64,000 bases of DNA from Candidatus Magasanikbacteria bacterium RIFOXYC2_FULL_42_28 (GTDB lineage: Bacteria; Patescibacteriota; Patescibacteriia; Magasanikbacterales; GWA2-37-8), in assembly GCA_001784435.1 (NCBI GenBank), contig MFQZ01000002.1, forward strand, positions 12,502-76,501, read 5' to 3'. The notes below the pieces were generated by a model. The model searched no databases. It had not been told where the DNA came from and saw only the letters and a list, made by a program, of their open reading frames with translations. A program made the position numbers and the translations under genes. Shown one piece after another: positions 6,373 through 42,098 of this stretch (the first letter of the stretch is position 1; the number at the start of each line of letters is the position of its first letter).

Positions 6373-6386
6373 AAATTATTATCAAT

Positions 6387-6466: not shown

Positions 6467-6480
6467 AAACGAGTGAACGA

Positions 6481-9104: not shown

Positions 9105-9136
9105 GACAGAGATCCCGAATCAAGTTCGGGATGACA
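9105..9136. repeat. GC-rich palindromic element, single unit
   Basis: GACAGAGATCCCGAatcaagtTCGGGATGACA, followed by a separate terminator-like hairpin at 9145-9180. Confidence 0.8.
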
Positions 9137-9194
9137 GTTAAAACAAAAAAAATCCCTCCGAAATTCGGAAGGATTTTTGAGTCAAGGTTAAAAT

Positions 9195-14881: not shown

Positions 14882-14919
14882 ATTATTTTGACTGTCAGTT
14901 AAATTTTAAATATCATCAT

Positions 14920-16413: not shown

Positions 16414-16530
16414 ATAATTTTAGGTTAAATGTTGATTATATATTACACCTATATTTATATTACACCTTTTTTAAAATTCTGACAAATCAATTAACACGGT
16501 GGCCTGATAAATCCAAGTTATAAAAAATAA

Positions 16531-17760: not shown

Positions 17761-17794
17761 ATGATAATATATATTTTACCAAAGTGAAATTAAT

Positions 17795-19243: not shown

Positions 19244-19860
19244 ACTTTTTCGATTTTTAAAATATACATTAACCCGCCGATTTCGCAATACCAATCTTTC
19301 GGCCGTGCCCCTCCCTCGTCATTTAAAATATGATAAAACCGATAACTAAAATCAGGATTTTTTGCTTTCACGGTTTCGGCCGCGTTTTTGAAAAATACCC
19401 CATCAGCGAATTTGTCATCAGTATACACAACTGTATCATAACCCTCTAATACTTTTTTAGAAAGATAATCAACTAACATTGCTTCAGTTTTAACATTAGT
19501 CTCGCCATAATCAAAAGTGGAGTTAATTTTTTGAAAAAAAGAACGAATGTTAAAACCGACTTTCGGATTCAAATACTCCGCGCGCCAATCCATGCACTCC
19601 GCCAAACCCGTGCTGAAAGCTTCGTTATTTTTAGTCAAACTTAAAACTTCCTTAAAACCTTTGGCAGTTTGTAAGTTAAAATAATTTCCTAACTTGTAAA
19701 CTTCTTCATAGCCTTCTTCAAATTTTCTGGGCTCTGTCGCGTTATCAACTCCTTTTAATTTAATATATTCCTCGTAACTATCAAAATGAGTTAATTCTTT
19801 ATTCCACTTTTCAGGAAAAAGGGTGCCTGCCAAATCCCAAAGGTACAAAATTTTATTCAT
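19240..19860 (-). CDS. hypothetical protein, possibly a degenerate HAD-like fold
   Basis: The N-terminal LYLWDLAGTLF resembles the DxxGTL haloacid-dehalogenase motif I. The match is weak. Confidence 0.3.
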   Translation of the reverse strand: MNKILYLWDLAGTLFPEKWNKELTHFDSYEEYIKLKGVDNATEPRKFEEGYEEVYKLGNYFNLQTAKGFKEVLSLTKNNEAFSTGLAECMDWRAEYLNPKVGFNIRSFFQKINSTFDYGETNVKTEAMLVDYLSKKVLEGYDTVVYTDDKFADGVFFKNAAETVKAKNPDFSYRFYHILNDEGGARPKDWYCEIGGLMYILKIEKV

Positions 19861-21364: not shown

Positions 21365-21365
21365 A

Positions 21366-22853
21366 TTATTTTTGTATAATTTTCACGACTCCACGGTCGG
21401 CATCGACTTCCACCAAATCACCATCTTTTAAAACTTTGGTCGCGACTTTAGTGCCAATAATACAAGGAATGCCTAGCTCACGCGCTATAATAGCGGCATG
21501 ACACGTAAGACCGCCCTCATCAGTAATTATCGCTTTTGCTTTTTTCATCGCCGGTAAAAATTCCGGCTGGGTCATGCAGGCAACTAGGATATCACCTTGA
21601 CGCATTTTAGAGATTTCTTTTTCTCCTCGGCATACCTTGGCTATGCCAATCACCTTTCCCGAAGACGCACAGGCGCCTTTCAGTTCGGTTATTATACCAC
21701 CGTCTTGTTGCTGATTCATTTCTAAAATTTTGAAATACTTTTTCGCTTGCGCGCCAGAAAATACCAATCCTTTGAGGCCAGGCAAAAGAACAAATAAGCT
21801 TGTCTTTCGGCGTTTTTTTAATTCCGGCATAATACCCGGCAACTTCTCCAATTCTAACGCACGAATATAGCGCAGATCGTTCATAGAGACATTAAATCTA
21901 CGACTAATCTCTAACAACAAAGAATCAAGGTAGTGAATTGTTCGTGTCAGACATTCTTTACGCCGATCGTGAATTTGAAAAATTTTGTCACCGATGGTTA
22001 ATAAATTTTTTAATTCCTTATTTTTTATTTTTTTTCGTAGGGCATCACGCTTCTTAACACGAATAGATAACGATTGATAATCAAAGATAATTTTATCCAA
22101 ATCAACTTTCTTGGATAATAACTCCCTGATTTCATCTACAAAATCTTCCGGTAATAATTTTTTGGCCGAAGTATATCCATTTAATTTCCAAAAATATTTT
22201 TGCTGATGTTTTATTAATTTTTTCAGTATGTCGGGATATTTTTTTAAATCTGTGACTGATGAAAGAGTAATTTTTTTATTCTTAATTAAACGAGCCAGCA
22301 AACACAATTCATAATGCTCGATTATCATAAACGAATGGAGACGCGGGGTCGTTAAGAGTATTGTTTTATCTAAAATATCATCTTTAAATTCTTCTGCGAT
22401 TAATTTTCTGATTTTATCTTCAGTAGTCAAACTAAACCCTTCAACGATGTGTGACACACTGCACAAATAAGCAGACAAATCATTAATTTGCCGCCAAAAA
22501 GAAAAAAGCTGTTTGACACTTGCTGTTTGCCAGTTTTTTCGTTCAATTCTATCGTAAGCAGACAAAACTTCGTGGCAAATTTTTTCATTTTCACGAACCA
22601 AATAACCTGGATAATTTTTGTTACCTGCGCATTTTTTCAACAATATCTCTAAAATAGCGCAAAGATCATCCCAAGCATAAGCATAGTAACAGACATCATC
22701 TTTAAAATATTCAATACAGGCGCAATAACCAAATCCCAAAGCTTTTGGCATATCGCGCACCATGGAAAACGCCGGACCATAAAGCATCGCTGGAGTAGCG
22801 TTAAACCCTTGCAAATACCAATTCTTTTTCAATAAATTATCTACATTTATCAT
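21366..22853 (-). CDS. swivel-domain paralog 6
   Basis: C-terminus DEGGLTCHAAIIARELGIPCIIGT...GDLVEVDA. The N-domain carries QQKYFWKLNGY. Confidence 0.7.
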   Translation of the reverse strand: MINVDNLLKKNWYLQGFNATPAMLYGPAFSMVRDMPKALGFGYCACIEYFKDDVCYYAYAWDDLCAILEILLKKCAGNKNYPGYLVRENEKICHEVLSAYDRIERKNWQTASVKQLFSFWRQINDLSAYLCSVSHIVEGFSLTTEDKIRKLIAEEFKDDILDKTILLTTPRLHSFMIIEHYELCLLARLIKNKKITLSSVTDLKKYPDILKKLIKHQQKYFWKLNGYTSAKKLLPEDFVDEIRELLSKKVDLDKIIFDYQSLSIRVKKRDALRKKIKNKELKNLLTIGDKIFQIHDRRKECLTRTIHYLDSLLLEISRRFNVSMNDLRYIRALELEKLPGIMPELKKRRKTSLFVLLPGLKGLVFSGAQAKKYFKILEMNQQQDGGIITELKGACASSGKVIGIAKVCRGEKEISKMRQGDILVACMTQPEFLPAMKKAKAIITDEGGLTCHAAIIARELGIPCIIGTKVATKVLKDGDLVEVDADRGVVKIIQK

Positions 22854-22855
22854 AA

Positions 22856-24388
22856 CTATTTCAAAATTTTCATTACCCCCCTATCAGCATCAACTTCAAT
22901 TCTATCGCCTGTTTTTAAAACTCTAGTAGCATCTCTCACTCCTATTATACAGGGCATGCCAAGCTCGCGCGATAGCACCGCTGCGTGCGAAGTAATGCCA
23001 CCTTGTTCTGTCACAATCGCCGCCGCTTTTCTCATTATGGGCACAAATTCAGGCGTAGTGTTATTGGTGACTAAAATTTCTCCGGTTTTAAACTTAACCA
23101 TTTCTTTGGTTTTTTTAATTACCCGCACAATTCCCGCAACTTTTCCTTTACAAGCGGCGACACCATATAAATATCCCGCCTCGGCAATAGTTGTTGCCGG
23201 AAAAAATTTAAAAAACTTATCGGCATCCGCACCAGATGATAAAACATATTCACCTTTATGAGTGACAGCCCAAAACACTTTTTGTTTGCGCTTGGAAATT
23301 TCATCTTTATAATCTATTTTTCGCAGCAATATTCCGGCTATTTCTGGTAAAATCACAAATGACAAATCACGTTTAGAATAATTCGCGCGCCGCCCAACTT
23401 CTCCTAAAAATTTATCAAAACCAGCCATACCCATACATACCCCACTTTTACGAATATCCTTCCATTTGCTAAATAGATTTGCTGTCTTAATGATATTTTT
23501 ATATTTTGAAGGAAGTTCAATTTCTTTTTCCGCTTGCTGTCGAGCTTTTTTTGCTTTTAATAAATACGCTTGCTTAACACGCCAATCATTGAACGCCCAC
23601 GAACCACTTCGATTATTATTTAATAATTTTAATATTTTTTCATAAATTTCTAACGCGCCATATCGTTCGACATGAAAATAATTATTCCGCATCCAGTGAT
23701 AGTTTTGTTCGTGGCGATTGATTAACTTTTGAAAAGCGATTGATAATTTATTAAACTCTGGTAATTTATCACCATACGCTTTATAAAATTTGGCTGTCAA
23801 AGCCAACAAATCATGTTCTTCTTGCAAAGTAAAAGATAGATGAATAGGCGCGACTAATTCAGCAATTATTTTTTCAAAACTATCGGAATGGGTCTTTTTT
23901 AATTCTTTGCCTAATAATTCTTGTAACCAATCACTCTTGCCGGTGGACATAAACGAATCGCAAATATAGGCAACACCCCCGGCTTTTACGTACAACTCAT
24001 AATAATTTTTAAACAAATTGTATAATTGCTTATCGGATAATTTTTGTAAATCTAATTCATCAGCTTTTTTATCTAAAATCAAAAACTTATGCCAATCCTT
24101 TAGCCATTTATTATAATAACGCAAAATCCAGTCATACTTTTTTGAAACATTTTTTATAATAAATTGGCGAACTGCCAACGAACTATTCGAATCGGCAAAC
24201 CAACGCGCATGATCTTCGCGCAAAAAACAAAAGCAGTGTTTGTAGTGCCGAGGAAAATCCTTGGCTTTTTGAAACACATCACTTTCAGAAGAAGCAAACA
24301 AAGTAAAAACTTTGGAATGAAAATCTTTACTAAACTGTCCGGTTTCTCGTTTTAATATTTGTACGGAAAATTTTTTTATTTCTTTCAT
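22856..24388 (-). CDS. swivel-domain paralog 7
   Basis: C-terminus EQGGITSHAAVLSRELGMPCIIGV...GDRIEVDA. The N-domain carries EQNYHWMRNNY. Confidence 0.7.
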   Translation of the reverse strand: MKEIKKFSVQILKRETGQFSKDFHSKVFTLFASSESDVFQKAKDFPRHYKHCFCFLREDHARWFADSNSSLAVRQFIIKNVSKKYDWILRYYNKWLKDWHKFLILDKKADELDLQKLSDKQLYNLFKNYYELYVKAGGVAYICDSFMSTGKSDWLQELLGKELKKTHSDSFEKIIAELVAPIHLSFTLQEEHDLLALTAKFYKAYGDKLPEFNKLSIAFQKLINRHEQNYHWMRNNYFHVERYGALEIYEKILKLLNNNRSGSWAFNDWRVKQAYLLKAKKARQQAEKEIELPSKYKNIIKTANLFSKWKDIRKSGVCMGMAGFDKFLGEVGRRANYSKRDLSFVILPEIAGILLRKIDYKDEISKRKQKVFWAVTHKGEYVLSSGADADKFFKFFPATTIAEAGYLYGVAACKGKVAGIVRVIKKTKEMVKFKTGEILVTNNTTPEFVPIMRKAAAIVTEQGGITSHAAVLSRELGMPCIIGVRDATRVLKTGDRIEVDADRGVMKILK

Positions 24389-24418
24389 ACCGCCATGAAT
24401 TCTTAGTCGGCGATTTAA

Positions 24419-25459
24419 TTAAAAATAGTTTTTAACCGCAAATTCAAATTGTTGAATAAATAATTCTTTTAAATATGCCAAACTATTTTGCTCATAAAAT
24501 AATAACATGGCTTTTTTGTATTCAGTTTCATCTAAACTGCGCAGAGACATCGGACACCAATCATTGGCCAACAGCAAAGCATTCGCGACAATACGACTTG
24601 TGCGTTTATTGCCATCAACAAACGGCTGGGTGTAGGCAATGAGAGCCAGAGCAAACAGCGCTTTTTCTGGCGGACTTTTAGTTTTATTTATTACTTCAAC
24701 TATTTTTGCTACCGCGTCTTCGATTTGGAAGCGATTATCAATCGGCTGATAGTTGGTACCAATAATCCGCACTAAAATACTGCGCCAGTTATCAGGCACG
24801 TCCAAATCTTTTATAAGCAACGAATGAACGTCGCGTATTTTGATTGGCTTTAATAATTTAAATTTGGTCGGATCGGACAAAATATAATCAAAAGCGACTT
24901 TGTGATTTAAAATCATTATCGCTTCTTTTTTATTATGCCCACTCGCTTCACGTGCTTCTTTAATTAAAGTTTCCGTTTCAAAAAGCGAATAGGTATTACC
25001 TTCCAAACGCGATGATTTCCAGCTAATTTCAATTGTCAGCCGTTCTAATTCTTTTTTTAAGGCGATTGGACTTAAGCGCGTGCGTTTAGTTTGATATTCA
25101 TTGTTTATCTTTTCCAAACGCGTCAATTCCGATGAGGTAAATACATTTTCAAACCAATTAAAAATTTCCCAATTAAATTTTTCTTTAATATCGCGTTGAT
25201 CTTGTGATTTTTTAAAATACACATCTGGAGAATAATAATATAACAATGGATTACTAATTTTGGGCAAATAGACCACTGCTCTCGCCTTCCCCTTTTTAAT
25301 AATCAAATTAGCGATTAACAACGCTTCCAAATCACGTAAAATCGTTGGTTTGGAAATTGCATCAAATTTAGTGGCGATTTCAGCTAAAATTGAACTTTGG
25401 GGCGCCTCGCCATTTTTTTGAAGATACTCTAAAATAGCGTTTTGTCGCTGTGTTAACAT
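24419..25459 (-). CDS. Fic/Doc family protein with N-terminal wHTH. The motif is Doc-type (NKR) with His replaced by Gln
   Basis: The Fido motif reads QPFVDGNKRTSR where the canonical form is HPFx(D/E)GN(G/K)R. An HTH-like N-terminus is present. Confidence 0.55.
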   Translation of the reverse strand: MLTQRQNAILEYLQKNGEAPQSSILAEIATKFDAISKPTILRDLEALLIANLIIKKGKARAVVYLPKISNPLLYYYSPDVYFKKSQDQRDIKEKFNWEIFNWFENVFTSSELTRLEKINNEYQTKRTRLSPIALKKELERLTIEISWKSSRLEGNTYSLFETETLIKEAREASGHNKKEAIMILNHKVAFDYILSDPTKFKLLKPIKIRDVHSLLIKDLDVPDNWRSILVRIIGTNYQPIDNRFQIEDAVAKIVEVINKTKSPPEKALFALALIAYTQPFVDGNKRTSRIVANALLLANDWCPMSLRSLDETEYKKAMLLFYEQNSLAYLKELFIQQFEFAVKNYF

Positions 25460-25508
25460 AAAAAATTAAGGTTAAATATAATCGTCTCATTTTTATGTCT
25501 TAATTGTA

Positions 25509-26927
25509 TCATTTTGATACGATTTTTACAATCCCTTTTAAAGCATCAACTTCCACTTTATCCCCATCCTTGAAAATTTTTGTAGCAGTTTTAGTATTAA
25601 CAATACACGGAATACCAAGTTCACGCGAAACAATCGCGGCGTGACATGTAAGCCCGCCAAAATCAGTCACAATCGCCAACGCCTTTTTCATTGCAAAAAT
25701 ATATTCTGGACTGGTCATTGGTGCTAACAGAATTTCGCCAACTTTAAATTCACCTACTTGATTTGGGTCAAGTAATATTCGGGCGTGACCAATAACTTTT
25801 CCACCTTTTCCTTTACTCACAACTAACCCCTTTACTTCTGTCTGGCTAACAATTTTTTCTTCACCATATAATTGCCAAAATGATTTTGTTTCATTTTCGT
25901 CTAAAATCTTACAATTTTTATAAAAATTTACCCCAAAACCACTGCGACGATTATCCAATATGTTGTGCAAATCTTTCCCATCGATAATCTCTCCTATCTC
26001 CCAATACCAAGTGTTTAACAAATCATCAACTGGATAGTCAAACCGGCGCGCTACCTCAACAAGAAGCCGATCTTGGTAGTGCAAAGCCATAAATATATAC
26101 TTTTTACGCTCATCTTGCACAGTAATCCCCTCGCTAATTGCCTGCCCAATATTAATAATTGATTTTGATAAATTATACTGTTTTATTACCGCAACTTTAT
26201 TTCTTCTTGTTTCCGCCAATCTCTGACGCGTCTCTAACTTAATATTAGATGTGATCTCTTTTTTGCGTTCAACAAAAAAACTCAACGGTAACACTTGTGT
26301 TCCAGCATAACTATTTTTTAACCAATAAAATTTTTGTTGATGCTTTTTTAAATTTTCACTCGTCGCTAGAGCCATTTCTTCTTCTTGATAAAACGATGGT
26401 TTTTCCGGTGTTGTTAATATTTGAACAACTTGTTTTAAGTTCGTCTTATCCTTAATATATTTAGACAACTCCTTTTCTATATATTTATCCGCGCCATAAT
26501 TTGCCAATTCCGGCACTGTCCCGTAAATCCAAAAATTAATATAATCATGACTATAATCCGCCCAAAACTGATTAAATTGCTTATCGGTCAATTTTGCCAA
26601 ATCAATATTATCCAAATAGCGATGCCAACGCTCTAACTTAACAACCTCTTCTTTCCAGCGTTTATAAATATTATTTCGCGATTTTGGTGGCAACCAATAC
26701 TTTACAAATACTTTTTGCCCAGCACTGCGCAGAGTGGCGTATTCATTCAACCACAACATCTGACGATTGCGGAACAAGAATAAACTTCGCGACCAATTCA
26801 GCCCCAAAAACTTTTGACAAAAATACTTATAATTTACCTCGGTAAAAAATGAAGTATAAAAAAATCTGCCCGGAATCGGCCCCCAGCGAAAAATTTCTTT
26901 TTTAGGATTAAGTGGTAATTTGTTCAT
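25509..26927 (-). CDS. swivel-domain paralog 8
   Basis: C-terminus DFGGLTCHAAIVSRELGIPCIVNT...GDKVEVDA. The N-domain carries QQKFYWLKNSY. Confidence 0.7.
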   Translation of the reverse strand: MNKLPLNPKKEIFRWGPIPGRFFYTSFFTEVNYKYFCQKFLGLNWSRSLFLFRNRQMLWLNEYATLRSAGQKVFVKYWLPPKSRNNIYKRWKEEVVKLERWHRYLDNIDLAKLTDKQFNQFWADYSHDYINFWIYGTVPELANYGADKYIEKELSKYIKDKTNLKQVVQILTTPEKPSFYQEEEMALATSENLKKHQQKFYWLKNSYAGTQVLPLSFFVERKKEITSNIKLETRQRLAETRRNKVAVIKQYNLSKSIINIGQAISEGITVQDERKKYIFMALHYQDRLLVEVARRFDYPVDDLLNTWYWEIGEIIDGKDLHNILDNRRSGFGVNFYKNCKILDENETKSFWQLYGEEKIVSQTEVKGLVVSKGKGGKVIGHARILLDPNQVGEFKVGEILLAPMTSPEYIFAMKKALAIVTDFGGLTCHAAIVSRELGIPCIVNTKTATKIFKDGDKVEVDALKGIVKIVSK

Positions 26928-26932
26928 AATTG

Positions 26933-28432
26933 TTATTTTACTATCACTACGCCGTGATCAGCGTTGACTAACACCCAATCACCGTCTTTTAATTTCTTGG
27001 TTGCTGCTTGGGTGCCGATAATACAAGGAATTTTTAATTCTCGGCTGACTACGGCCGCGTGCGAGGTGATTCCGCCCTCGTCCGTCACTATGGCCACGGC
27101 GTTTTTCATAAGAGGTACAAATTCCGGGCGAGTGCTAACAGTCACCAGCACATCGCCTTGCGACATTTTTGAAAATTCACTCATTTTATTAATTACCACC
27201 ACTCTTCCCTCCGCTTTACCAGTACAAGCAATCACACCTCTAATTTCCGTGACAGCTGAATCAATTGACTTTTCAATAATTTTTTCAAGTTTGCTACTAA
27301 GTGCTGGATTAAGGTGATACTCGCTTTTACCGTTCCAAGCCAACATGTAACTCTTCTTAAACAAGGTCTCATATTTTTTGGTGAGCGACCGCTTAACCGG
27401 CAAACTCTTAATAGCCAGCGGATCGCATTTCTTAATATCTTCCCAATTCAAATTACTCCGACGCGCCATTTCTGTGCCCACGAGCTCTAAATAATGATTT
27501 AAGCGTTGCACTTGCACCTTGCGCTCATCGCGCCAAAAAGAAATTACTCCGAAAAAATGAAACATTTGCTTGCCCCATTTGGAAAGATGGTAATACTTGA
27601 AAATTTTAGTTTTTTTATCTTTAATCTCTTTGCTAAAATTTACTAGCATGTCTAATTCTTTGTGAGTATCTCTCGGACCAGATAAAATTTGTTTGATATT
27701 TTCTACTATTTCAAATGCGGTTAACACCTGTGTATGCCCCCAACTGTTGTAAATCCAAAAATAAGATGATTGATAATTCTCAATAGCTTTTTCTATTTCT
27801 GGGTACAATTTTAAACGATGTAAATTTTGCGGTGATGAAATATACAAAAAAGTGTTAAGTGCGCCGGGAGTTTTTTTGATATCTTCGACAATTTTTAACA
27901 AATCACGCTCACTACGCTGGTGACTGATTAATTTTTCTTGCGACATCAAATCCGCTATCTCGGCGTCTTCTAAAACTACATTCTCTTCAATTAATTCCTT
28001 CTTTACCAATCCTTCCGCGTCTAAATCATAAATATCAATATAAAATAAATTCCACATGAAAAAATTTGCCGAAGCCAATCGGTGATTAATTCGTAAGAGC
28101 GCTGAGTCACTAAATTTTTTAACTCCACTTTTATTTATCTCTTCAAAAATCTTTTCGCTTGCGACCCGTACTTTCTGGTACCAATCGTTGTAAAGATTAT
28201 CAATAAAACCAAAGTCTTCACGCTCTTTAAGTAAATATTTTTCCGCCAATTGTCGCATTAAGTCTTTACTAAAATAAGCCTTGGCTAAATCATTACGACA
28301 TAACCAAAAAATATTACTATCTTGATCGTGAAACCAATACAAACAACCACAACAAGGCCGATAAATAAAATAAGGCGCACTCTCGGTTTCCTGACGATAC
28401 CAGTCAGTGGTTCTAATTTTATCTAAATCCAT
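26933..28432 (-). CDS. swivel-domain paralog 9
   Basis: C-terminus DEGGITSHAAVVSRELKIPCIIGT...GDWVLVNA. The N-domain carries QSSYFWIYNSW. Confidence 0.7.
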   Translation of the reverse strand: MDLDKIRTTDWYRQETESAPYFIYRPCCGCLYWFHDQDSNIFWLCRNDLAKAYFSKDLMRQLAEKYLLKEREDFGFIDNLYNDWYQKVRVASEKIFEEINKSGVKKFSDSALLRINHRLASANFFMWNLFYIDIYDLDAEGLVKKELIEENVVLEDAEIADLMSQEKLISHQRSERDLLKIVEDIKKTPGALNTFLYISSPQNLHRLKLYPEIEKAIENYQSSYFWIYNSWGHTQVLTAFEIVENIKQILSGPRDTHKELDMLVNFSKEIKDKKTKIFKYYHLSKWGKQMFHFFGVISFWRDERKVQVQRLNHYLELVGTEMARRSNLNWEDIKKCDPLAIKSLPVKRSLTKKYETLFKKSYMLAWNGKSEYHLNPALSSKLEKIIEKSIDSAVTEIRGVIACTGKAEGRVVVINKMSEFSKMSQGDVLVTVSTRPEFVPLMKNAVAIVTDEGGITSHAAVVSRELKIPCIIGTQAATKKLKDGDWVLVNADHGVVIVK

Positions 28433-28437
28433 ATGGT

Positions 28438-29367
28438 CTATTTGTCACTCGTCTGAAATTTCTTATTAAACTCATCGCGGTCGGCCACTAATTCCTCTAA
28501 AACTACTTTAGGGGCGACCAGATCTATATCCTCATCACCCAGCTTAACTTTAATGTGAATTTCTTGTTGCGCAGGACCTGTGTTCTCAATCTCTACCCGA
28601 AAACCTTGCAATTCTTTAAACATCGGCCCAATTTTTGCCATCACTTCATTACGCCGATCCACCCCTTGTAATTTTTCAACCAACCTCAGAAGAAATGATT
28701 CATTTATAGTTGCGTGCGTTCCCAAATATCTTTCCATTTGGCTTTTTAATGGCTCATATTTTTCAGGCTTACGACCGACTAAGCGATTAAAATTTCCACC
28801 CATCTCTACATAGCGCAAAATTAAATCAGCAACATTACCAGCCACTCGGGTAATACTGGTCATTTGGGGATCGTTATCGGCTATCGCCACCTGATCACTA
28901 TTCTCCACCATAAATTTAGTTACCCAACCCTCGGCATAGGCCTTATCTAATAAACCACCCTTATCAGTGAAAAAATCCAATCGTGAATCAGGAATAATTT
29001 TTTTGCCATATTTAAGCTGTTTGGCAATTTCCGCTTCAATTTCTTCCATACTCATTCCCGTGGTATCGGGCTGGCCGGAAAGCATTACGTGCGTAGCCGA
29101 CTCCTGCGCCCGTTTACGCGGACTGGCAACGACCGCGGAAACTTCTAATTGTGGGGCAAGTCCCAGCCCTTTTTCTCTAGCGGCTGTTCTGGCAGACGGA
29201 ATTAAACGAACATCTTCGTCTGTCTGTCCGTCTGCGGTTTTTTCCTTTTTACCATGACGCATAAATTCCAACACGATTCTGGAGCGCGTTTTGCCCTCAA
29301 ACTCACTAATGCCACCATTCTTTCTCTCTGAACCAGGCATCTCAAAAGGATTCCTTGAGCTACACAT
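28438..29367 (-). CDS. histidine phosphatase superfamily (PGAM-like) protein, paralog B
   Basis: FMRHG...LIPSARTAAREKGLGL. Same length (309 aa) as paralog A, with a shared C-terminal region. Confidence 0.5.
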   Translation of the reverse strand: MCSSRNPFEMPGSERKNGGISEFEGKTRSRIVLEFMRHGKKEKTADGQTDEDVRLIPSARTAAREKGLGLAPQLEVSAVVASPRKRAQESATHVMLSGQPDTTGMSMEEIEAEIAKQLKYGKKIIPDSRLDFFTDKGGLLDKAYAEGWVTKFMVENSDQVAIADNDPQMTSITRVAGNVADLILRYVEMGGNFNRLVGRKPEKYEPLKSQMERYLGTHATINESFLLRLVEKLQGVDRRNEVMAKIGPMFKELQGFRVEIENTGPAQQEIHIKVKLGDEDIDLVAPKVVLEELVADRDEFNKKFQTSDK

Positions 29368-29385
29368 ATATTTTATGGTTAAAAA

Positions 29386-30837
29386 TTAAACCTTTTTAAT
29401 TACTTTTATTATACCACTATTAGCATCAACTTCAACCATGTCACCATCTTTCAAAATTGAAGTTGCGACTTGAGTGCCAATTACGCATGGAATACCAAGT
29501 TCTCGCGCTACTATCGCGGCGTGGCATGTTATACCACCCTCATCAGTTATAATAGCGACCGCCTTCTTCATAAGCGGTAAATACTCCGGTCTGGTCATTG
29601 GCGCCACTAAAATATCACCTGATTTCATTTTATTAAAATCTGCAGGAATTTTAATAACTTTAACAGTGCCAACGATAATACCCCGACTGGCCGATTGACC
29701 CTTTAATTCCTTAAATTGATTGTTAAATTGTTGTTCAAGTATTTTTAAAAACTCAACACATTCCCTACCGGTTAATACCACAGTTTTGTTATTGCGATCA
29801 CAATAATATATACTTTTTTTCGCGCGATTGGCTAATTCTTTTTTATAAGATTGGCCAAAATTCAAACGAGTAGAAAATATTTCTTCCGGCACAGCAAACA
29901 AAACATGTTTGTAAGGCGTACCGGCACGACGAGCAAATTCCTGCGCAAATAAATAATAATAACCAACCCCAATCATCGCTTCCCTTTTTCGTTCATCACG
30001 CCAATAACCCATACGGCGAAAAAAATAAAAAATATTATCCACCTCTTTGGGTAAACGCAATTCTTTCAACAAATTTCGACGATTCTCATTTTTATTTGAA
30101 TGTTCTAATTTAATCTTTTTAATTTTTCGTGTAATTTCTGACAGATGAATTTTTAACAATTTTTCAAAATTTTTAGTAAAATAATCTAATTTCAAAGTAG
30201 TCGCATGCGCCCAATCACGTTGAAGCCAAAAATATTTCTGTTGATGAAATTGTAGTAATGTGCCTCGCTTATTTACTGGAGACATCCTAACGTTTAACAA
30301 ACCTAATTCTTCTTGCTGTGTTAACGTCATCTCCTTCGGGGTCGTAATTAAAACCAGATCATCTGGTTTAATAGTTAAATTATATTTATTTATAACATCA
30401 TTAATTATTTTATCCCCCCATGGGTCAAACGCTTCAATATGAACACTAATAACCCACGACTGGTAATCAGCATTAACAAATTTCTTATACAAATTCAATA
30501 AATGCGACAAACTAAGTTTTGATAAATCTCTCAATTCTATATACTTAACAAGTGAATTTCTTTCATTTATGCAATTTTCCCAAGTAGTTATTTTAGAATC
30601 TATATAACGGCGATCGCGACTTTGTTTGACGATATCCGCATTTCCAGCTTTCAGCTCAGCTAAACTGTTAAAATACCCACGATGCATAACCCCATCTTGA
30701 TGGACTATAAGGTTTTTTTTGCCCCACAATTTCATACCAGAATAAAATGGAACAATAAAATAAAATGGCACGCCTGCTCCACCTTGCCGATACCAATTCA
30801 CTGTTTTAATATAATTTAAATCAATACCCGAAAGCAT
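29386..30837 (-). CDS. swivel-domain paralog 10
   Basis: C-terminus DEGGITCHAAIVARELGIPCVIGT...GDMVEVDA. The N-domain carries QQKYFWLQRDW. Confidence 0.7.
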   Translation of the reverse strand: MLSGIDLNYIKTVNWYRQGGAGVPFYFIVPFYSGMKLWGKKNLIVHQDGVMHRGYFNSLAELKAGNADIVKQSRDRRYIDSKITTWENCINERNSLVKYIELRDLSKLSLSHLLNLYKKFVNADYQSWVISVHIEAFDPWGDKIINDVINKYNLTIKPDDLVLITTPKEMTLTQQEELGLLNVRMSPVNKRGTLLQFHQQKYFWLQRDWAHATTLKLDYFTKNFEKLLKIHLSEITRKIKKIKLEHSNKNENRRNLLKELRLPKEVDNIFYFFRRMGYWRDERKREAMIGVGYYYLFAQEFARRAGTPYKHVLFAVPEEIFSTRLNFGQSYKKELANRAKKSIYYCDRNNKTVVLTGRECVEFLKILEQQFNNQFKELKGQSASRGIIVGTVKVIKIPADFNKMKSGDILVAPMTRPEYLPLMKKAVAIITDEGGITCHAAIVARELGIPCVIGTQVATSILKDGDMVEVDANSGIIKVIKKV

Positions 30838-30838
30838 A

Positions 30839-32314
30839 CTATTTCCTTATAATTCGAACTGAATTATGGTTGGCGTTAACTTCTACCAAATCACCATCTT
30901 TTAATAATTTAGTGGCAAATTTTGTGCCCACCACACAGGGAATTCCGAGCTCGCGCGAAACAATCGCGGCGTGACACATTACCCCGCCTTCGTCTGTTAT
31001 AATCGCACCGGCACGACGCATTGCCGGCACATAATCAGGACTCGTCATCGAGGCTACTAAAATATCACCCTGTTCAACTTTATTTACTTCATTAGCGCTA
31101 TGAAGCACTTTCACTTTACCACTGCAAAATCCCGCCGAGGCAATTATCCCATCGAGTTTGCCGGTACTAACTTCTTCCGGCAATAAATATTCTGCCATGC
31201 GAGCATCAGGATCGTTTAATTTAACATCGATATTCTTGCCTTGCCACCAAACATAACAATGCTTTTGGCGCTGTTCTAAAATTTCTTTTAAAATAATTTT
31301 GCCTGTTTTCAAAGCTAAAAATACTTCTTGCGGTAAATAATACTGCACTAACTCCCTTTTTATTCCTAAACGTCGACCAGTTTCAGCTAATATCCTCTCC
31401 GCCCAAAAATGTACTTGGGTAAATATTTCTTTTTTATAATCCATCAAATATCCACCTTGGCGCATAATTTTAAAATATGCGCGATACTCTGGTGAAATTT
31501 TTAATTCTTTTTCTAAACCCCGCTGGCGGATTGATAAATTTTTAAAATATTTTTCGCTCGATTTTATTTTTTCTGCCAATTTAGGATTTTTTATCATTAA
31601 ACGTAAAACTTCGGTAAAATATTTTTCATTCCAGATATACATTCCATAATCAAATGGTACCCAAAAATATTGACGGGTGTGATTTTTTATTACTAATTTT
31701 TTATTTTTTATTTTGTTATTACGAATTTTTAATGCCAACTTCGTCAAATCATCTTCTTCGCGTTTTACAAATGATTTTTCTGCTGGCGATACTAATATGT
31801 TATACATCGCCGAGTAATCTTGTCGATCGCCGTTTATCAATTTTTTCAGATAGTCAAATAATAACGGAGAAAGTTTTTCTTCTAATAATATTACTAACGG
31901 TTCGCTACAGATATAAGCGGCTTCATACATCTGTAAATATTGTTTCCAAAATTGAGATAATTCTGCATTAGAAAATTTTGACAAATCTTTCGTACTGACA
32001 TTTTTAACAAAAGTTAATAAACTATTAGACAACTTTGTGAATAATTTACTATTTTTTTTAATTAAATTTGGATCACTTTTTAGCTGATAAATTAATTCTT
32101 CAGCTGAACTTTTAATTTGACTACTTGAGGCGTACCAATACATAACATTATCCCGGTACACACATCTCGTCTCGCCAAAACTTTTCCCGCGCAATACGTT
32201 TTTCAAACCATAAGTAAAAACATGCCCGATGACATAAACATTGGGAAATATAAATACATTTTCTTTTCTTTGTTTAAAGATATAATCTCTTAACATACTT
32301 AAATATAATATCAA
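30839..32314 (-). CDS. swivel-domain paralog 11
   Basis: C-terminus DEGGVMCHAAIVSRELGIPCVVGT...GDLVEVNA. The N-domain carries TRQYFWVPFDY. Confidence 0.7.
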   Translation of the reverse strand: MILYLSMLRDYIFKQRKENVFIFPNVYVIGHVFTYGLKNVLRGKSFGETRCVYRDNVMYWYASSSQIKSSAEELIYQLKSDPNLIKKNSKLFTKLSNSLLTFVKNVSTKDLSKFSNAELSQFWKQYLQMYEAAYICSEPLVILLEEKLSPLLFDYLKKLINGDRQDYSAMYNILVSPAEKSFVKREEDDLTKLALKIRNNKIKNKKLVIKNHTRQYFWVPFDYGMYIWNEKYFTEVLRLMIKNPKLAEKIKSSEKYFKNLSIRQRGLEKELKISPEYRAYFKIMRQGGYLMDYKKEIFTQVHFWAERILAETGRRLGIKRELVQYYLPQEVFLALKTGKIILKEILEQRQKHCYVWWQGKNIDVKLNDPDARMAEYLLPEEVSTGKLDGIIASAGFCSGKVKVLHSANEVNKVEQGDILVASMTSPDYVPAMRRAGAIITDEGGVMCHAAIVSRELGIPCVVGTKFATKLLKDGDLVEVNANHNSVRIIRK

Positions 32315-32362: not shown

Positions 32363-34288
32363 CTATTCATCTATATTCTCCACTCGATTTGGCAAAATTG
32401 TTCTTGGCTGGGTTGGACGAGTGATTGACATGTTTCTAGGCTCGCTTTGCTCGCTCGGAACACCAAGGCTTCGCCGTGCTACGCCCCGCGAACCAGGACC
32501 AACAGAGTTTGATTTTGGTTGAAGTGATGACAGTGACATCCCCTTTTCGTTTGGATCTGTTAAAATTATTGGAGTGGGGCTACCAAAAGAATTACTGGCT
32601 TGATCATTTTTATGGCGATTGCGGTGGCGTTTTTTTTTAGGTGGTTGCGTGCCGAATTGAGGTTGTGCAATAGGTCGCGGTAAGGAATTGCTTACCGACT
32701 TAGTTGGGATCGGAATGATAGTTGAGCCAGAGATCCCGACTTTCGTCGGGATGACAGGCGAAGTTGGTGCACGGGATAGAGATTCCTCCTTCGGCGTCGG
32801 AATGACAAACGCATGCTTAACCGAAACCACCCCCTCGCCCCCTCCTTGAAAAGGAGGGGAAATTGACGGCGATTTAATTGGTACCGGTGCTTTTTCAAAC
32901 ATCGCCTCGTCATCATCTACTTCCAATTCCGATGCATCGTCATCGTTCATAATCACCATCCCACTCCAGCGCGCAATTTTATCTTCAATCTTATCTTTCG
33001 GCACGGCATAGCGTTCACGCGACACGCGCACTACTTTTTCTTGGCTATGCGTGGTTTGAGCAATGGGTGGCAAAGTTAAGGCGGAAAAGGGTTTACTCGC
33101 AATCCCATCAATCATTAATTTTAAATAAATATGATACTTGGGCAAATTCACCAGGTCCTCTTCAATAAAAGTTGGAATAAATTCTTTGGCCAAAATTTCC
33201 GCGTCCGTGGATCCAACCCGAAATGTTACCATCGTGCCCACGTTGCCGATGACCGCGGCCAACACTTCTTCTTCTAACTGTTCCATATACTGATGCGCCA
33301 TAATCAAATCCAAACGATATTTACGCGCTTCGGATAAAATATTAGCAAAACTTTCCGTGGCAAAATTTTGAAATTCATCAACATACAAAAAGAAATCTTT
33401 GCGATCTTTTTCCGGCGTGTCTACCCGCTCCATCGCGGCCAACTGTAATTTAGTGATAAGCATGCCACCCAAAAGCCGTGAATTATCTTCACCAATTCGG
33501 CCTTTAGCCAAATTCATGATTAAAATCTTTTTGTTATCCATTATTTCGCGAATATCAATGCGCGATTTAACCTGCGCCACAATATTGCGAATAACCGAGG
33601 CGGATAAAAATTGACCGATTTTATTTTGAATAGGGGCAACAGCTTCCTGGCGATATTTATCATTGTAAGCGGCGAATTCTGTCTGCCAAAACGCTTTCAC
33701 CACCGGATCTTTTAAATTGGCCACGACGCGTTTACGATAATCCGCGTCCGCGAGCAAGCGGTTGATACCAAGTAAAGTCGTACCGGGAAAATCCAATAAC
33801 GCCAAAATAGTATTGTTCAAAATATATTCCATACGCGAACTCCAAACATCCGGCCAGATTTTTTTAAACACACCCATTAGCCCCGACGCGACCAAATGTT
33901 TGTATTCCGGGCGCACGGTTTCTAAAATATTAAAACCGATTGGAAAATCAATGTCCGAGGGATTAAAATATATCACATCGTTGATGCGATGAGGCGGAAT
34001 GAAATCAATAATTTTTTCCGCGAAATCGCCGTGCGGATCAACTAACCCCACACCATGCCCGGCATAAATATCGTTCAAAACCATGTTTTCCAAAATCGTC
34101 GTCTTACCCATGCCAGTTTTGCCCACCACATACATATGGCGACGACGGTCATCAACTTTAATGCCAAATTTACGATTTTGATTACGATAATTTACCAAAC
34201 CAAAAAAATTGATCTCGGGGTTAATCGCGACCAAGGATTTTGGTTCTGCCGGAGCTGGTGTTATCGGTTGATCAAATTCGTCGGACAT
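32363..34288 (-). CDS. soluble VirD4/TrwB-like (type IV coupling protein family) P-loop ATPase with low-complexity C-terminal tail
   Basis: Walker A YVVGKTGMGKTT followed by GLVDPHGDF, compared with TrwB GxTGxGKS...VDPNGD. No N-terminal TM. The C-terminal ~200 aa is Pro/Ser-rich and hosts in-frame GPE copies. Confidence 0.5.
   Translation of the reverse strand: MSDEFDQPITPAPAEPKSLVAINPEINFFGLVNYRNQNRKFGIKVDDRRRHMYVVGKTGMGKTTILENMVLNDIYAGHGVGLVDPHGDFAEKIIDFIPPHRINDVIYFNPSDIDFPIGFNILETVRPEYKHLVASGLMGVFKKIWPDVWSSRMEYILNNTILALLDFPGTTLLGINRLLADADYRKRVVANLKDPVVKAFWQTEFAAYNDKYRQEAVAPIQNKIGQFLSASVIRNIVAQVKSRIDIREIMDNKKILIMNLAKGRIGEDNSRLLGGMLITKLQLAAMERVDTPEKDRKDFFLYVDEFQNFATESFANILSEARKYRLDLIMAHQYMEQLEEEVLAAVIGNVGTMVTFRVGSTDAEILAKEFIPTFIEEDLVNLPKYHIYLKLMIDGIASKPFSALTLPPIAQTTHSQEKVVRVSRERYAVPKDKIEDKIARWSGMVIMNDDDASELEVDDDEAMFEKAPVPIKSPSISPPFQGGGEGVVSVKHAFVIPTPKEESLSRAPTSPVIPTKVGISGSTIIPIPTKSVSNSLPRPIAQPQFGTQPPKKKRHRNRHKNDQASNSFGSPTPIILTDPNEKGMSLSSLQPKSNSVGPGSRGVARRSLGVPSEQSEPRNMSITRPTQPRTILPNRVENIDE
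32706..32807. repeat. GC-rich palindromic elements inserted in-frame in a CDS (two or three units)
   Basis: cagAGATCCCGActttcgTCGGGATGACAgg and GGATAGAGATTCCtccttcggcgtcGGAATGACAaa, translated on the minus strand as ...FVIPTPKEESLSRAPTSPVIPTKVGISGS... Confidence 0.75.
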
Positions 34289-36425: not shown

Positions 36426-36828
36426 TTGCTAAATCCTTAACACTAATCTCACCTGGATTTTTAATTATAGAATGGACACTGCCACCACCATCACCGGTAT
36501 AGCGTGGCAAAATGTGCCAGTGCACATGCGGCACAGCTTGACCAGCAACTGGCGCATTATTAATGCCGATATTCATACCATCCGGATTTAAGCGCGCTTG
36601 CACTCGCCCGGCGGCAGCGCGCAACCCAACTGATAAAAGTTGAAAATCCTCTACGCTCATACTCCAAATATTTTCAAAATGTTTTTTGGGGACTACCACG
36701 GTATGGCCTTGGGCGTGCGGAAATACGTCTAAAAATGCTAAACAATTTTCATCTTCATAAACGGTGTAATTGGGAATTTGACCAGCGATGATTTTGCAAA
36801 ATATACAATCCATACAATTAATTTTCAA
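36409..36828 (-). CDS. HIT family protein (histidine triad nucleotide-binding)
   Basis: HIT motif HVHWHILPR. Confidence 0.85.
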   Translation of the reverse strand: MKINCMDCIFCKIIAGQIPNYTVYEDENCLAFLDVFPHAQGHTVVVPKKHFENIWSMSVEDFQLLSVGLRAAAGRVQARLNPDGMNIGINNAPVAGQAVPHVHWHILPRYTGDGGGSVHSIIKNPGEISVKDLASKFKS

Positions 36829-39037
36829 TTACTAAAATATCTCCAAATTTTTTAACAATTGCTTTATTATTATACCTCACTTCTCCTTCTTTTACCACCC
36901 CAAAACAACGACTCGCGCCGGTCAGTATTTTACTGTCCGCGAGTATTGCTTCGGCACTGCGCATTTTAAATTTATTAAATAATTGGACGCGTTCGGGTTG
37001 AGCAAAATTTTGGCCCATGGGAAATCCACCACCGATTATGGTTTTTGCGGAAATTGCTTCCAGGGCTAGTAGCGGATAAGTGTCAGCCAAGACACAGGGG
37101 CGCCGAGATTGCTTCTCTTCGCTCGCAATGACAGAATATACATAATCCATGGCCTGATATTCATCACGGCTGACCGTTTTAGCGTCTGGACCGAGAGAAT
37201 ATGAGGCGGTAATCGCGAGAGAGATAATAAAAATAATAAACAACAACGCGATAGATTGCTCCCCGCCAGAGGCGGACAGGCGTCTGATCCTCGCAATGAC
37301 AAAGTTGATTGCACCCGCTACCATTATGATGGCAAGCCAGGCCAAAACCACATCTAACCGGCGCGCTAATAAATTATCGCCAGTTAAAAAATAACGAGAA
37401 ATAATATTGCCGGACATTAGACCGAGAAATAATAGGGCAAGTAATTTTTGTCGCGGGCGATAGATTGCTTCGTCAGCGCCGGTGGCACCTCCTCGCAATG
37501 ACAAAAAGGCACCGAACAATGTCACGAACCAAAATAAAATCGCAAATCCAACCAGCCACCAGCGCCATTGCATTAGAATATTCACGACAAACGCGTAAGA
37601 CGGCGCTTGATTAAATAAAATATTTCCGGACGCGATGTCATGCGGACGCGGGCCACTTGCAAAATAATACGCGGAAAAATTACCAACGGTCTGTTGCGCT
37701 TGGCCGAGCCAATTTATATTAGGATTAAATTGTGAGTAATTGGTGATGAGTTCAATAATGGGGATGGATAGAGCAACGAGAATAAAAACCAACGGAAAGA
37801 TAAAAATAGATTGCCGCGTCGCTGCGCTCCTCGCAATGACAAAGTAAACCATCCACGCCAACCAAAATAAAATAAAATATAACGTATAACCAAAAATTAA
37901 TAACACGCCGGCAATTGCCAAAAATAGTATCCCTAATTTTTCGCCAACCGGACGCTTAACAATCATTAACAATAAAAACAGCCAAAATAAAAAATCGATA
38001 TTAACCGGCAAGGTGGTGGCGCCGGCAATTTGCAAGCCAAATGGCAAAAATCCCAACCAAACTAAAAATAATGATTCGGATTTCTTCCACCCCAAAGCCC
38101 TCCCCCATTCAAACGCCAAAATCGGAAAAAATAACGCCCACAAAATCGGCCCGAACCAGCGATTAAAACTCATTAAATCAAAATTGAAAAAAGTTTTGCC
38201 GATTATGCCCAATGACCAAAATTGCGCGTAACCCAATCGACCAATATCTAATTTTTGCCAAAAATTGGATTCGCCTATGGGAGCAACAGTTGAAAAACTA
38301 TTTCCCGCCACCAAATTTAATTCCTGTCCCAAATGCCGCCAACTATCGGCATTATAAAAATACTCATGTGTGGCTGGCAAATAACTGGTAAGCAAAAATG
38401 CGTGCGCGCAAAGTAAAAACAACACCACCTTGGCTGGTAATTTCGCAAAACATAAAAATCCTAAAACTAAAGTAGCGGCGCCGAACCAATAAATATAGGC
38501 GGACGGTAAAATTTGCCAAGGGGTAACAGGGCTTGGCTGCGTTACACCCTGTAAACCGTCAGTGCCAATTGTAAATAATTGATGGGCGGTAATTAACCAC
38601 AAAACAACATACAAAAACACCCCAGCTTTGTTGCGTGGCATTTCCTGCAAAATTTTCAAATTATCATCAAACCAAGCCAGCATTTCTGACTCCTCTTGAT
38701 TCTCTCTCCAAAAAATCAAAGGCAATAACCCTGCCCCAAATAGCGCCAAAGCCACGCTAAGGGGCGTAAAATGATAGAAACACAGCGAAAGCCCAATGAT
38801 CCACCCGGCGCTCATAAGCGCTCCCAAGGCCGCCAAGAGCCGTACACGCAAAGCGCGTGGTGAAAAATCAAATCTAACAACTAAAATTCGGCGCCACCAT
38901 TTGGCTGTAATTAGCCAATAAAATAAAAAAATGGCGCTTTTTTGCCAAGTAGGCGCGTTATAAAATAATAAAAAAAATATCAAACCGGATATAATAAATA
39001 GGCCCAATAACTTTTTGGAAAACACGCGAAAATTCAT
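36818..39037 (-). CDS. large polytopic membrane protein (about 20 TM; possible lipid-linked glycosyltransferase-like) carrying four in-frame GPE insertions
   Basis: Hydrophobic throughout. No catalytic motif recognised. Confidence 0.4.
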   Translation of the reverse strand: MNFRVFSKKLLGLFIISGLIFFLLFYNAPTWQKSAIFLFYWLITAKWWRRILVVRFDFSPRALRVRLLAALGALMSAGWIIGLSLCFYHFTPLSVALALFGAGLLPLIFWRENQEESEMLAWFDDNLKILQEMPRNKAGVFLYVVLWLITAHQLFTIGTDGLQGVTQPSPVTPWQILPSAYIYWFGAATLVLGFLCFAKLPAKVVLFLLCAHAFLLTSYLPATHEYFYNADSWRHLGQELNLVAGNSFSTVAPIGESNFWQKLDIGRLGYAQFWSLGIIGKTFFNFDLMSFNRWFGPILWALFFPILAFEWGRALGWKKSESLFLVWLGFLPFGLQIAGATTLPVNIDFLFWLFLLLMIVKRPVGEKLGILFLAIAGVLLIFGYTLYFILFWLAWMVYFVIARSAATRQSIFIFPLVFILVALSIPIIELITNYSQFNPNINWLGQAQQTVGNFSAYYFASGPRPHDIASGNILFNQAPSYAFVVNILMQWRWWLVGFAILFWFVTLFGAFLSLRGGATGADEAIYRPRQKLLALLFLGLMSGNIISRYFLTGDNLLARRLDVVLAWLAIIMVAGAINFVIARIRRLSASGGEQSIALLFIIFIISLAITASYSLGPDAKTVSRDEYQAMDYVYSVIASEEKQSRRPCVLADTYPLLALEAISAKTIIGGGFPMGQNFAQPERVQLFNKFKMRSAEAILADSKILTGASRCFGVVKEGEVRYNNKAIVKKFGDILVIEN
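37105..37842. repeat. four GC-rich palindromic element copies (ATTGC/GCAAT stem variant) inside a CDS
   Basis: Copies at 37105-37134, 37251-37302, 37460-37504 and 37806-37842. Each reads (G)ATAGATTGC-variable GC-rich hairpin-CTCGCAATGACA(A)AG. Three are translated as FVIAR... (a shortened VIAS version at the first copy), and the third copy in a different frame as FLSLRGG.... Confidence 0.8.
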
Positions 39038-40581: not shown

Positions 40582-40594
40582 CGCAACACACGCC

Positions 40595-40688
40595 TGTCAT
40601 TTCGAATCCCCCGTCGCAGTGGGGTGAGAAATCTCCATCTCGACGGGATAGAGATCCCTCGTCGGTGCGAACCTCGCTCGGGATGACA
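40595..40688. repeat. GC-rich palindromic element, complex copy
   Basis: TGTCATTTCGAA...cgacGGGATAGAGATCCCtcgtcg...CTCGGGATGACA. Confidence 0.7.
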
Positions 40689-40721
40689 AAATAAAAAAAT
40701 TAATTTTTAAATTAAAAATAT

Positions 40722-41973: not shown

Positions 41974-41993
41974 ATAATAATATCAACTTAATT

Positions 41994-42059
41994 GTCATGC
42001 TGAACTTGTTTCAGCATCTCCTGAAAATCACGGGATCCTGAAACAAGTTCAGGATGACA
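41994..42059. repeat. GC-rich palindromic element, ATGCTGAA/ATCCTGAA stem variant, double hairpin
   Basis: TGTC-ATGCTGAActtgtTTCAGCAT-ctcctgaaaatcacggg-ATCCTGAAacaagTTCAGGAT-GACA. Confidence 0.75.
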
Positions 42060-42098
42060 CGAATAATGGGCTAATTATAATACACTTCTATGTTTTTG

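Follow-up and report, generated by a model that had tools for sequence, protein, structure and literature searches.

Introduction

The single-domain GIY-YIG proteins named Ssn (CDD cd10448, GIY-YIG_unchar_3) are flanked by hairpin repeats of 20-50 nt, the SRMs (Chenal et al. 2025, Nat Commun 16:2388, PMC11893778). The biochemistry of Ssn is based on the Neisseria and Wolbachia enzymes. In Neisseria, the repeat takes the form of the NTS, CGTCATTCCCGCGMAVGCGGGAATCYRG, and the NTS-ssnA-NTS layout was noted as being like an insertion sequence. SsnA binds the forward strand only, and only as single-stranded DNA (ssDNA), and its cut lies a few nucleotides to the 5′ side of the hairpin (PMC11893778). 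Here we analyze a stretch of 64,000 nt from Candidatus Magasanikbacteria bacterium RIFOXYC2_FULL_42_28 (contig MFQZ01000002.1, positions 12,502 to 76,501; the whole stretch is called the window below), in which one membrane-protein gene contains four in-frame copies of a short palindromic element. With good probability, each of these segments is a solo copy of a hairpin repeat from a divergent class of the Ssn/SRM family, spread via a cognate Ssn acting on ssDNA.

Rickettsia palindromic elements (RPEs) were reportedly described by Ogata et al. in 2000 as inserted in frame in genes. RPEs are about 100-150 bp long and specific to Rickettsia. Repetitive extragenic palindromic sequences (REPs) lie within genes in several species, and a CGTC-tagged superfamily of REPs, with CGTC at one end, includes the RPEs (Di Nocera et al. 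2013, PMC3733652). That such repeats can persist in frame was known before, from Rickettsia as well as other bacteria, and the case in the window is real and clear.

The conserved positions of SRMs are GTC(A/T)(C/T) directly 5′ of the palindrome and C directly 3′ of it; for the NTS, the three bases GTC on the 5′ side matter most for cleavage and the C on the 3′ side for binding (PMC11893778). The published SRM pattern, HGTCWYN(0-2)YYVSBRHN(0-5)WNVSBRGN(0-2)RNCYNB, was derived from 29 genomes of four phyla. An ssn homolog is present in 81% of the genomes with more than 200 SRMs, Rickettsia is among the SRM-rich genomes, and the specificity of the nuclease follows its own flanking repeats. SsnA modulates natural transformation, its demonstrated role being to restrict transforming ssDNA. 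That work mentions neither the candidate phyla radiation (CPR) nor intragenic copies (PMC11893778). Literature searches under the DNA or peptide strings of our element returned unrelated primers only, and those on palindromic repeats or REPs of CPR bacteria, on GIY-YIG selfish elements and on COG2827/YhbQ returned nothing on this element.

Results

Four copies of one DNA motif in different reading frames

The pattern GATTGC-N(5-35)-CGCAATGAC has exactly four matches in the window (37107-37132, 37254-37300, 37463-37502 and 37809-37840 in plus-strand notation), while none is expected from 100 shuffles. All four fall within the open reading frame (ORF) 36818..39037 on the minus strand, which encodes a polytopic membrane protein of 739 amino acids (GenBank OGH88459.1). 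In the orientation of the gene, each copy reads (T)TGTCATTGCGAG…GCAATCT, that is, TGTCAT-TGC-GAG…GCA-ATCT. The general form of the element is 5′-(T/C)GTCAT, a 3-nt stem, GAG…variable interior…CGNNG, the complementary 3 nt and ATC(T/C)(C/T)-3′, in total 30-55 nt.

The four copies, all on the minus strand and all of the class with a TGC stem, are 33-54 nt long. Starting from the N-terminus of the protein, copy 4 (37805..37843) encodes amino acids 399-411, FVIARSAATRQSI, preceded by Y. Copy 3 (37459..37505) encodes amino acids 511-526, FLSLRGGATGADEAIY. The longest, copy 2 (37250..37303), encodes amino acids 579-596, FVIARIRRLSASGGEQSI, preceded by N, and the shortest, copy 1 (37103..37135), encodes amino acids 635-646, SVIASEEKQSRR, preceded by Y. 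Copy 1 starts with GAGATTGC, not ATAGATTGC, and lies in the C-terminal soluble domain.

Translation gives VIA…QS for copies 1, 2 and 4 and SLR…EAI for copy 3. Copy 3 is translated as F-LSLRGGATGADEAIY; compared with the other copies, it is shifted by +1 at the head and by +2 at the tail. Because copy 3 is out of register at both ends, one DNA motif yields different peptides. A first-pass annotation of this DNA had described four in-frame repeat copies in a 739-aa membrane protein and the reading of one repeat as different peptides, and both descriptions were correct.

The copies had also been described as palindromic with a GC-rich mini-hairpin, which is only weakly true, as the four copies are degenerate as hairpins. 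A 5-bp stem, ATTGC/GCAAT, is left in all four copies; the rest folds as shuffled sequence does, and copy 2 alone has a clear inner mini-hairpin (CCGCC/GGCGG). The arrangement GTC-ATTGC…GCAAT-C, with the GTC and the C on which Ssn depends, is preserved in 4/4 copies.

Recognition by an independent model and association with GIY-YIG genes

For the covariance model R1, only cassette termini were used, 54 hairpins that flank small GIY-YIG genes in unrelated metagenomes. Applied to the window, the model gave exactly 13 sites at E<0.01, and the next match had an E value of 0.9. The copies in the membrane-protein gene ranked 1, 2, 4 and 6 among the 13 (cmsearch E 8e-8 for copy 4, at rank 1, 5.9e-7 for copy 3, 1.4e-4 for copy 2 and 9.2e-7 for copy 1), and they belong to the same family as the cassette hairpins. 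Two of the other sites lie in a TrwB-like gene and seven are intergenic. These nine have other, co-varying stems; the four copies are not the sole members in the window.

Outside the window, a scan for TGTCATTGCGAG-N(8-38)-GCAATCT in one genome per species found at least 120 loci. The hosts among the loci listed include Chloroflexota, Planctomycetota, Patescibacteria, Bacillota, Proteobacteria, Nitrospirota, Omnitrophota and Bacteroidota. Among these loci, close pairs are tail-to-tail in 44 of 74 cases, head-to-head in 13 and tandem in 17. Three of the four tail-to-tail pairs with a spacing of 300-510 bp enclose a small GIY-YIG ORF (PF01541, E 1e-16, 3e-15); one enclosed ORF, in a Falkowbacteria (CPR) genome, is decayed. 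No recurrent cargo was found among the ORFs between same-orientation pairs 370-720 bp apart. The idea that the cargo might be a four-helix bundle ("23S IVS protein"), DUF559 or GxxExxY found no support; the cargo found was GIY-YIG.

For the reciprocal comparison, 80 metagenomic loci (L127-L206) were picked by relatedness of the GIY-YIG protein alone and searched with the rule GTCAT-NNN…N′N′N′-ATC. A correctly oriented element was present at most 200 bp away in 72/80 loci, and elements on both sides, with GTCAT outward, in 35/80. Beside the GIY-YIG ORF, elements numbered 5.6 per kb, 12-fold more than the 0.46 per kb at distances beyond 400 bp. The resulting cassette is 340-620 bp long and encodes a single-domain GIY-YIG nuclease of about 95 aa, with the tails of the hairpins inward. 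The two hairpins of a cassette agree in stem class and in the sequence adjoining their tails on the inner side. TGC was the commonest stem class beside GIY-YIG genes, with 85 of the 188 elements counted, followed by TCT (45), CCT (23) and TCC (20). Three homologs (L165, L173 and L175, 51-59% identical to the query) have literal NTS-like SRMs alongside. Of the 542 elements in all loci taken together, 91% are not within long ORFs. In low-GC genomes, 16 intragenic copies are in sense and 3 in antisense orientation, and gene sense is inseparable here from the replication strand.

The same data can be read in another way: the hairpins could be primary, as self-sustaining repeats or recombination sites that spread through slippage, gene conversion or another enzyme, and the GIY-YIG gene a guest homing into the centre of existing doublets, in which case Ssn spreads nothing and has no part in the intragenic copies. 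Doublets without an ORF far outnumber cassettes, the gene being found in only 3-4 of the at least 120 motif-selected loci, and the cassette ORF sits exactly at the spacer of the doublet. The window lacks an ssn gene, the role shown for SsnA in Neisseria is restriction of transforming ssDNA and not transposition, and dRS3, which the TCC-CGCG class resembles, is a known target of a phage recombinase (PMC11893778). The shared stem class and inner sequence of a cassette's two hairpins speak against a guest gene, as they look like the ends of a co-evolving unit; so do the presence of an ssn homolog in most SRM-rich genomes and a nuclease specificity that follows the flanking repeats (PMC11893778). 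On balance, we consider a guest gene rather unlikely, yet the most serious of the alternatives.

Several other genic and clustered copies were seen in these loci. A Curtissbacteria ATP-dependent DNA ligase (L060 2015-2050) contains an in-frame element read as VIARNSKNDEAI, an Omnitrophica PfkB kinase (L067 947-978) one read as SLRGAKRRSNL, and a PD-(D/E)XK nuclease (L033 2336-2369) an antisense in-frame element that reads …ARND. In a 748-aa ORF (L114 2-2245), the C-terminal third is full of element-derived sequence in several frames and orientations. Chloroflexus sp. (L008 1371-1957, L081 1626-2273) has dense same-orientation arrays with a spacing of about 50 nt, unlike the doublets elsewhere.

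Presence, absence and class turnover in orthologs

In an alignment of 27 sequences, all four copy positions are gapped or unconserved, and most homologs have gaps or unrelated sequence where the copies sit. We compared the gene at the codon level with its four closest orthologs, L001 (66% identity, the closest), L002, L125 and L126. At the site of copy 1, none of the four has an element, and the net difference is +4 aa only. At the site of copy 4, L001, L125 and L126 have an AT-rich loop of similar length instead of an element; L002 has a whole tail-to-tail doublet in frame in this loop (L002 11220-11320; SLREVAQATKQSP…EIATAFGLAMT). At the site of copy 3, the net difference is +11 aa from L125, L126 and L002, and the extra 11 aa are common only to L001. 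There, L001 has an element of the CCC class, which starts 5 nt off and is read in a third frame (CHP…). At the site of copy 2, L001 has an element of the TCC class at the same codon and in the same frame, and the heads in L125 and L126 look decayed. An extra element of L001 at about aa 250 has no counterpart in the window gene. The orthologs thus show presence and absence of elements as well as turnover of their class. The first-pass annotation had suggested looking for insertion polymorphism in orthologs; copies 1 and 4 are absent from L001, sites 2 and 3 carry another class there, and clean pairs of filled and empty sites were not obtained at this divergence. In the same locus of L002, a Glycos_transf_4 gene ends in an element, which makes up its last ~12 codons (L002 4987-5009).

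Two members of the 90%-identity cluster of the protein, P0039 and P0040, are aberrant; both come from one sequencing run (SRR3989339). P0040 (683 aa) lacks exactly 56 aa, or 168 nt, which is the start-to-start distance of copies 2 and 1 (window ~37122-37290). A simulated recombinant of copy 2 and copy 1 within the shared GTCATTGCGAG equals P0040 save for one residue at the junction. P0040 may be a genuine allele that arose by in-frame deletion between two repeats, or else an artefact of assembly. In P0039 (402 aa), a frameshift has truncated the protein, and copy 4 appears as SLRGAQRRGNL; the truncation is unrelated to any insertion.

These two members could raise the suspicion that the ORF itself is an assembly or sequencing artefact or a pseudogene. 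We attach practically no credence to it: the identical full-length 739-aa protein is found on 5 independently assembled contigs of different assemblies and in GenBank, and the family shows conservation and synteny and gives a confident fold prediction. The identity of the protein on these contigs and in OGH88459.1 excludes the sequencing error that the first-pass annotation had named as grounds for refutation.

Placement of the copies in the predicted fold

The UniRef name of the protein is "Glycosyltransferase RgtA/B/C/D-like", and a Pfam search with it gave no match. It has 37 homologs, of which those with names are all from Magasanikbacteria, and the synteny DnaB / host gene / HIT is kept across the homologs. 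AlphaFold (AF2), run on the family alignment, gave a model of high confidence (pLDDT 88, pTM 0.91). In a Foldseek search of the PDB with this model, the top folds were the GT-C enzymes STT3, AglB, ALG9 and Pmt4, with a probability of 0.96-1.0 and weak E-values and TM-scores. By its name and modeled fold, the protein is predicted to be membrane glycosyltransferase-like and GT-C-like.

In the model, each copy covers the end of a helix and a turn of 4-12 residues, and copies 4, 3 and 2 also cover the start of the next helix. Copy 4 falls on helix 385-404, loop 405-409 and helix 410-431; copy 3 on helix 493-515, loop 516-522 and helix 523-550; and copy 2 on helix 562-587, loop 588-591 and helix 592-614. 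Copy 1 falls on helix 624-640 and loop 641-652, with the next helix starting from 653, past the element. The proposal that the copies are tolerated in loops agrees with this helix-turn location. A count of membrane crossings places the loops of copies 4, 3 and 2 on the same side and the conserved long loop 432-492 and the C-terminal domain on the opposite side. Together with the arginine content, the count suggests that these three loops would be cytoplasmic.

Since all copies are helix-turn connectors, and three share the FVIA…QS reading, they might be taken for a peptide repeat under selection, in which a functional motif for helix capping or turns was duplicated inside the protein. Copy 3 is read in another frame and site 3 of L001 in a third, the DNA motif also occurs between genes and in unrelated proteins and phyla, and the segments are missing from most homologs. 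This explanation, which we regard as hardly credible, is effectively refuted by the differences in frame and by the copies between genes. The earlier view of the segments as a DNA-level element, and not a selected peptide, is strengthened by the two frames, the intergenic copies in the window and the recognition of the copies by a model from unrelated genomes.

Other elements in the window

On the plus strand, the relaxed form of the family is (A/T)AGA-GAT-NNN…N′N′N′-ATGAC-A. Stem-matched GAT-NNN…N′N′N′-ATGAC sites number 17 in the window and 2.3 in shuffles, and their stem triplets co-vary (TGC/GCA, CCC/GGG, TCC/GGA, GCT/AGC, CCT/AGG, TTC/GAA).

A tandem pair of the CCC and TCC classes (32728-32758 and 32777-32809, minus strand; cmsearch E 4e-4 and 1.5e-5) lies in a TrwB/VirD4-like ORF (32363..34288, minus strand; Pfam TrwB_AAD_bind), in frame with its low-complexity C-terminal tail. 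The encoded peptides, FVIPTPKEESL and PVIPTKVGISG, both coincide with gaps when aligned with the ortholog in L002 (66% identity).

The intergenic elements are three tail-to-tail doublets and a singlet. The first doublet, with its GTCAT ends outward (6385-6416 on the plus strand and 6438-6468 on the minus strand), folds as DNA with -25.7 kcal/mol (z -7.4). The second, just 3′ of dnaB (40593-40637, plus; 40649-40690, minus), has a fold z of -1.6, and the third (41991..42061; cmsearch E 7e-3 each) folds with -24.3 kcal/mol (z -10.2). The singlet (9107..9138, minus strand; cmsearch E 1e-3) forms an 8-bp hairpin (z -4.7). By the hairpin criterion for SRMs, the singlet and two doublets have z values from -4.7 to -10.2 and the remaining doublet -1.6, while the gene copies have the 5-bp stem only.

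Although the coding fraction is 0.93, 7 of the 13 elements are intergenic (p = 1e-5). The membrane-protein gene makes up 3.7% of the coding DNA, yet it holds 4 of the 6 intragenic copies.

The segments could also be kept for a function of the nucleic acid, for example as ribosome-pausing hairpins, RNase sites or transcription terminators: like REPs, the intergenic relatives form strong hairpins located between the ends of genes, and three gene copies come directly after transmembrane helices. The gene copies, however, fold as shuffles do, both as DNA and as RNA, the orthologs lack the copies or have other classes, and no Rfam family matches. A function of this kind seems very improbable to us. 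The Rfam scan of the whole window returned three tRNAs only and no family for the elements.

The GC skew of the plus strand is negative nearly throughout positions 1-52000, and the genes up to 39 kb are nearly all on the minus strand. Since the singlets up to 39 kb are also all on the minus strand, the orientation of the elements is confounded with the directions of replication and transcription. A regular-expression match at 3829-3871, without support from the covariance model, was judged to be due to chance, as were matches in L058 (GidA) and L092, judged by eye from the encoded peptides. The window also contains at least 10 tandem paralogous ORFs of about 470-510 aa (13403-32314, minus strand) with a C-terminal PEP-utilising-enzyme mobile domain (PF00391); their N-terminal ~400 aa have no Pfam match.

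Discussion

Comparison with known systems

The elements resemble the Ssn/SRM system in several respects. As a class, they are oriented hairpins, degenerate in the four gene copies, in which (C/T)GTCAT is conserved 5′ and ATC 3′; inverted copies bracket a GIY-YIG gene of about 95 aa in other genomes, and hundreds of copies without an ORF are found in many phyla. Some of the retrieved cassettes have a near-exact NTS, TGTCATTCCCGCGAAAGCGGGAATCCAG. At least one element was present at 90% of the loci and elements on both sides at 44%, compared with 71% and 42% in Chenal et al. 2025 (PMC11893778). The window copies differ from published SRMs in that their TGC-GAG… stem is outside the pattern, their host is a CPR bacterium, they are intragenic and translated, and ssn is not present in the window. 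The published pattern matches one of the 13 window elements (6387-6415 only) and is found near 3 of the 80 GIY-YIG loci.

With RPEs, the elements share palindromic repeats that are inserted in frame, translated, tolerated at the surface or in loops, and polymorphic among orthologs. The CGTC end of RPEs overlaps the CGTCAT tag of the NTS, and relatives of our element (alignment A3) start with CGTCAT. They differ from RPEs in their length of 33-54 nt, their distribution across phyla, their host, Candidatus Magasanikbacteria, and the TGTC start of the gene copies; this distinction was drawn without an alignment to an RPE consensus. The analogy with RPEs made in the first-pass annotation was apt and is probably more than an analogy, given that RPEs are grouped with CGTC-tagged REPs (PMC3733652) and that Rickettsia is SRM-rich (PMC11893778), but the element itself is of the SRM type and not an RPE.

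Like REPs, REPINs and bacterial interspersed mosaic elements, our elements are short hairpins, rich in GC and bearing an oriented tag; most sit between the ends of genes, and inverted doublets are frequent. As with REPs or REPINs and the REP-associated tyrosine transposase (RAYT), a small nuclease gene is flanked by repeats and action on ssDNA is presumed. Unlike in the IS200/IS605-like REP-RAYT system, the tag is GTCAT and not GTAG, the enzyme is a GIY-YIG protein and not an HUH tyrosine (Y1) transposase, and mobilization of elements of the Ssn/SRM type is hypothetical. Classical miniature inverted-repeat transposable elements have terminal inverted repeats and a target-site duplication; no duplication was seen here by eye.

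Origin of the in-frame copies

Several observations weigh against an origin of the four segments by Ssn-driven spread. Transposition by Ssn is a hypothesis of its authors that was never demonstrated (PMC11893778). The published SRM pattern matches 0/4 gene copies and 2/54 cassette termini. Neither the 64-kb window nor the orthologous loci examined contain an ssn or GIY-YIG gene, and among the best 120 of at least 7,994 homologs an ssn gene from Magasanikbacteria was not identifiable. The cassette nuclease has no match in NCBIfam and only a weak match, to UPF0213, in the PDB; the cassette proteins were assigned by Pfam PF01541 and are putative members of the Ssn (cd10448) clade. No target-site duplication was seen by eye at 35 cassette junctions, and neither a duplication nor a clean empty site was found at the gene copies in the ortholog comparison at this divergence. 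All 4 of the 4 TGC-class copies of the window are in one gene (p ~3e-5), for which simple random insertion is no explanation. The gene copies fold as shuffled sequence (DNA z -0.34, -0.43, +0.62 and +0.11; RNA likewise), and such poor hairpins make their present-day recognition by the nuclease doubtful.

In spite of these points, spread of a divergent SRM class via Ssn is the explanation that we favor. Since the window has no ssn gene, we can only infer mobilization and turnover by a cognate Ssn. Such an Ssn, encoded at another place in the genome or lineage, might act on ssDNA, such as transforming DNA or the template of the lagging strand. Hairpins could then be spread or replaced in trans through repair or ectopic copying, as happens for REPs through RAYT. 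Genic copies would survive only when their net length keeps the frame, no stop codon arises and the peptide is harmless; in its sense orientation, the element is open in all three frames and so would introduce no stop. In the membrane-protein gene, the hydrophobic head (FVIA or FLSL) would extend a helix and the arginine-rich middle would form a short loop. After insertion, the hairpin would decay under coding constraint while the termini stay.

The in-frame copies may, in addition, be live sites of ssDNA cleavage and recombination that drive turnover of loops and in-frame deletions, and they could mark this envelope-glycosylation gene for restriction by Ssn during natural transformation, a process on which CPR bacteria presumably rely. 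This reading draws on the GTC and C positions needed by Ssn, which are retained, on the different element classes at sites 2 and 3 of the 66%-identical ortholog and on P0040, which equals a recombinant between copies 2 and 1 save for one residue. We nevertheless consider this reading improbable.

Implications

The published SRM pattern misses the TGC, TCT and CCT classes, which are the commonest at this branch of GIY-YIG proteins, and the elements it does match are NTS-like ones within the TCC class. Genome-wide surveys have therefore probably undercounted such repeats, and the intragenic copies among them, by a wide margin. For annotation, the element accounts for the ubiquitous peptides VIARS…QS, SLRG…SNL and …LAMT / …ARND in real and spurious proteins. 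The classes described here supply concrete substrates on which new Ssn specificities can be tested. If the four segments are indeed such repeats, as is probable, they would tie translated palindromic repeats, an old puzzle posed by RPE-like elements, to the recently characterized Ssn/SRM ssDNA-nuclease system and would extend this system to CPR bacteria.

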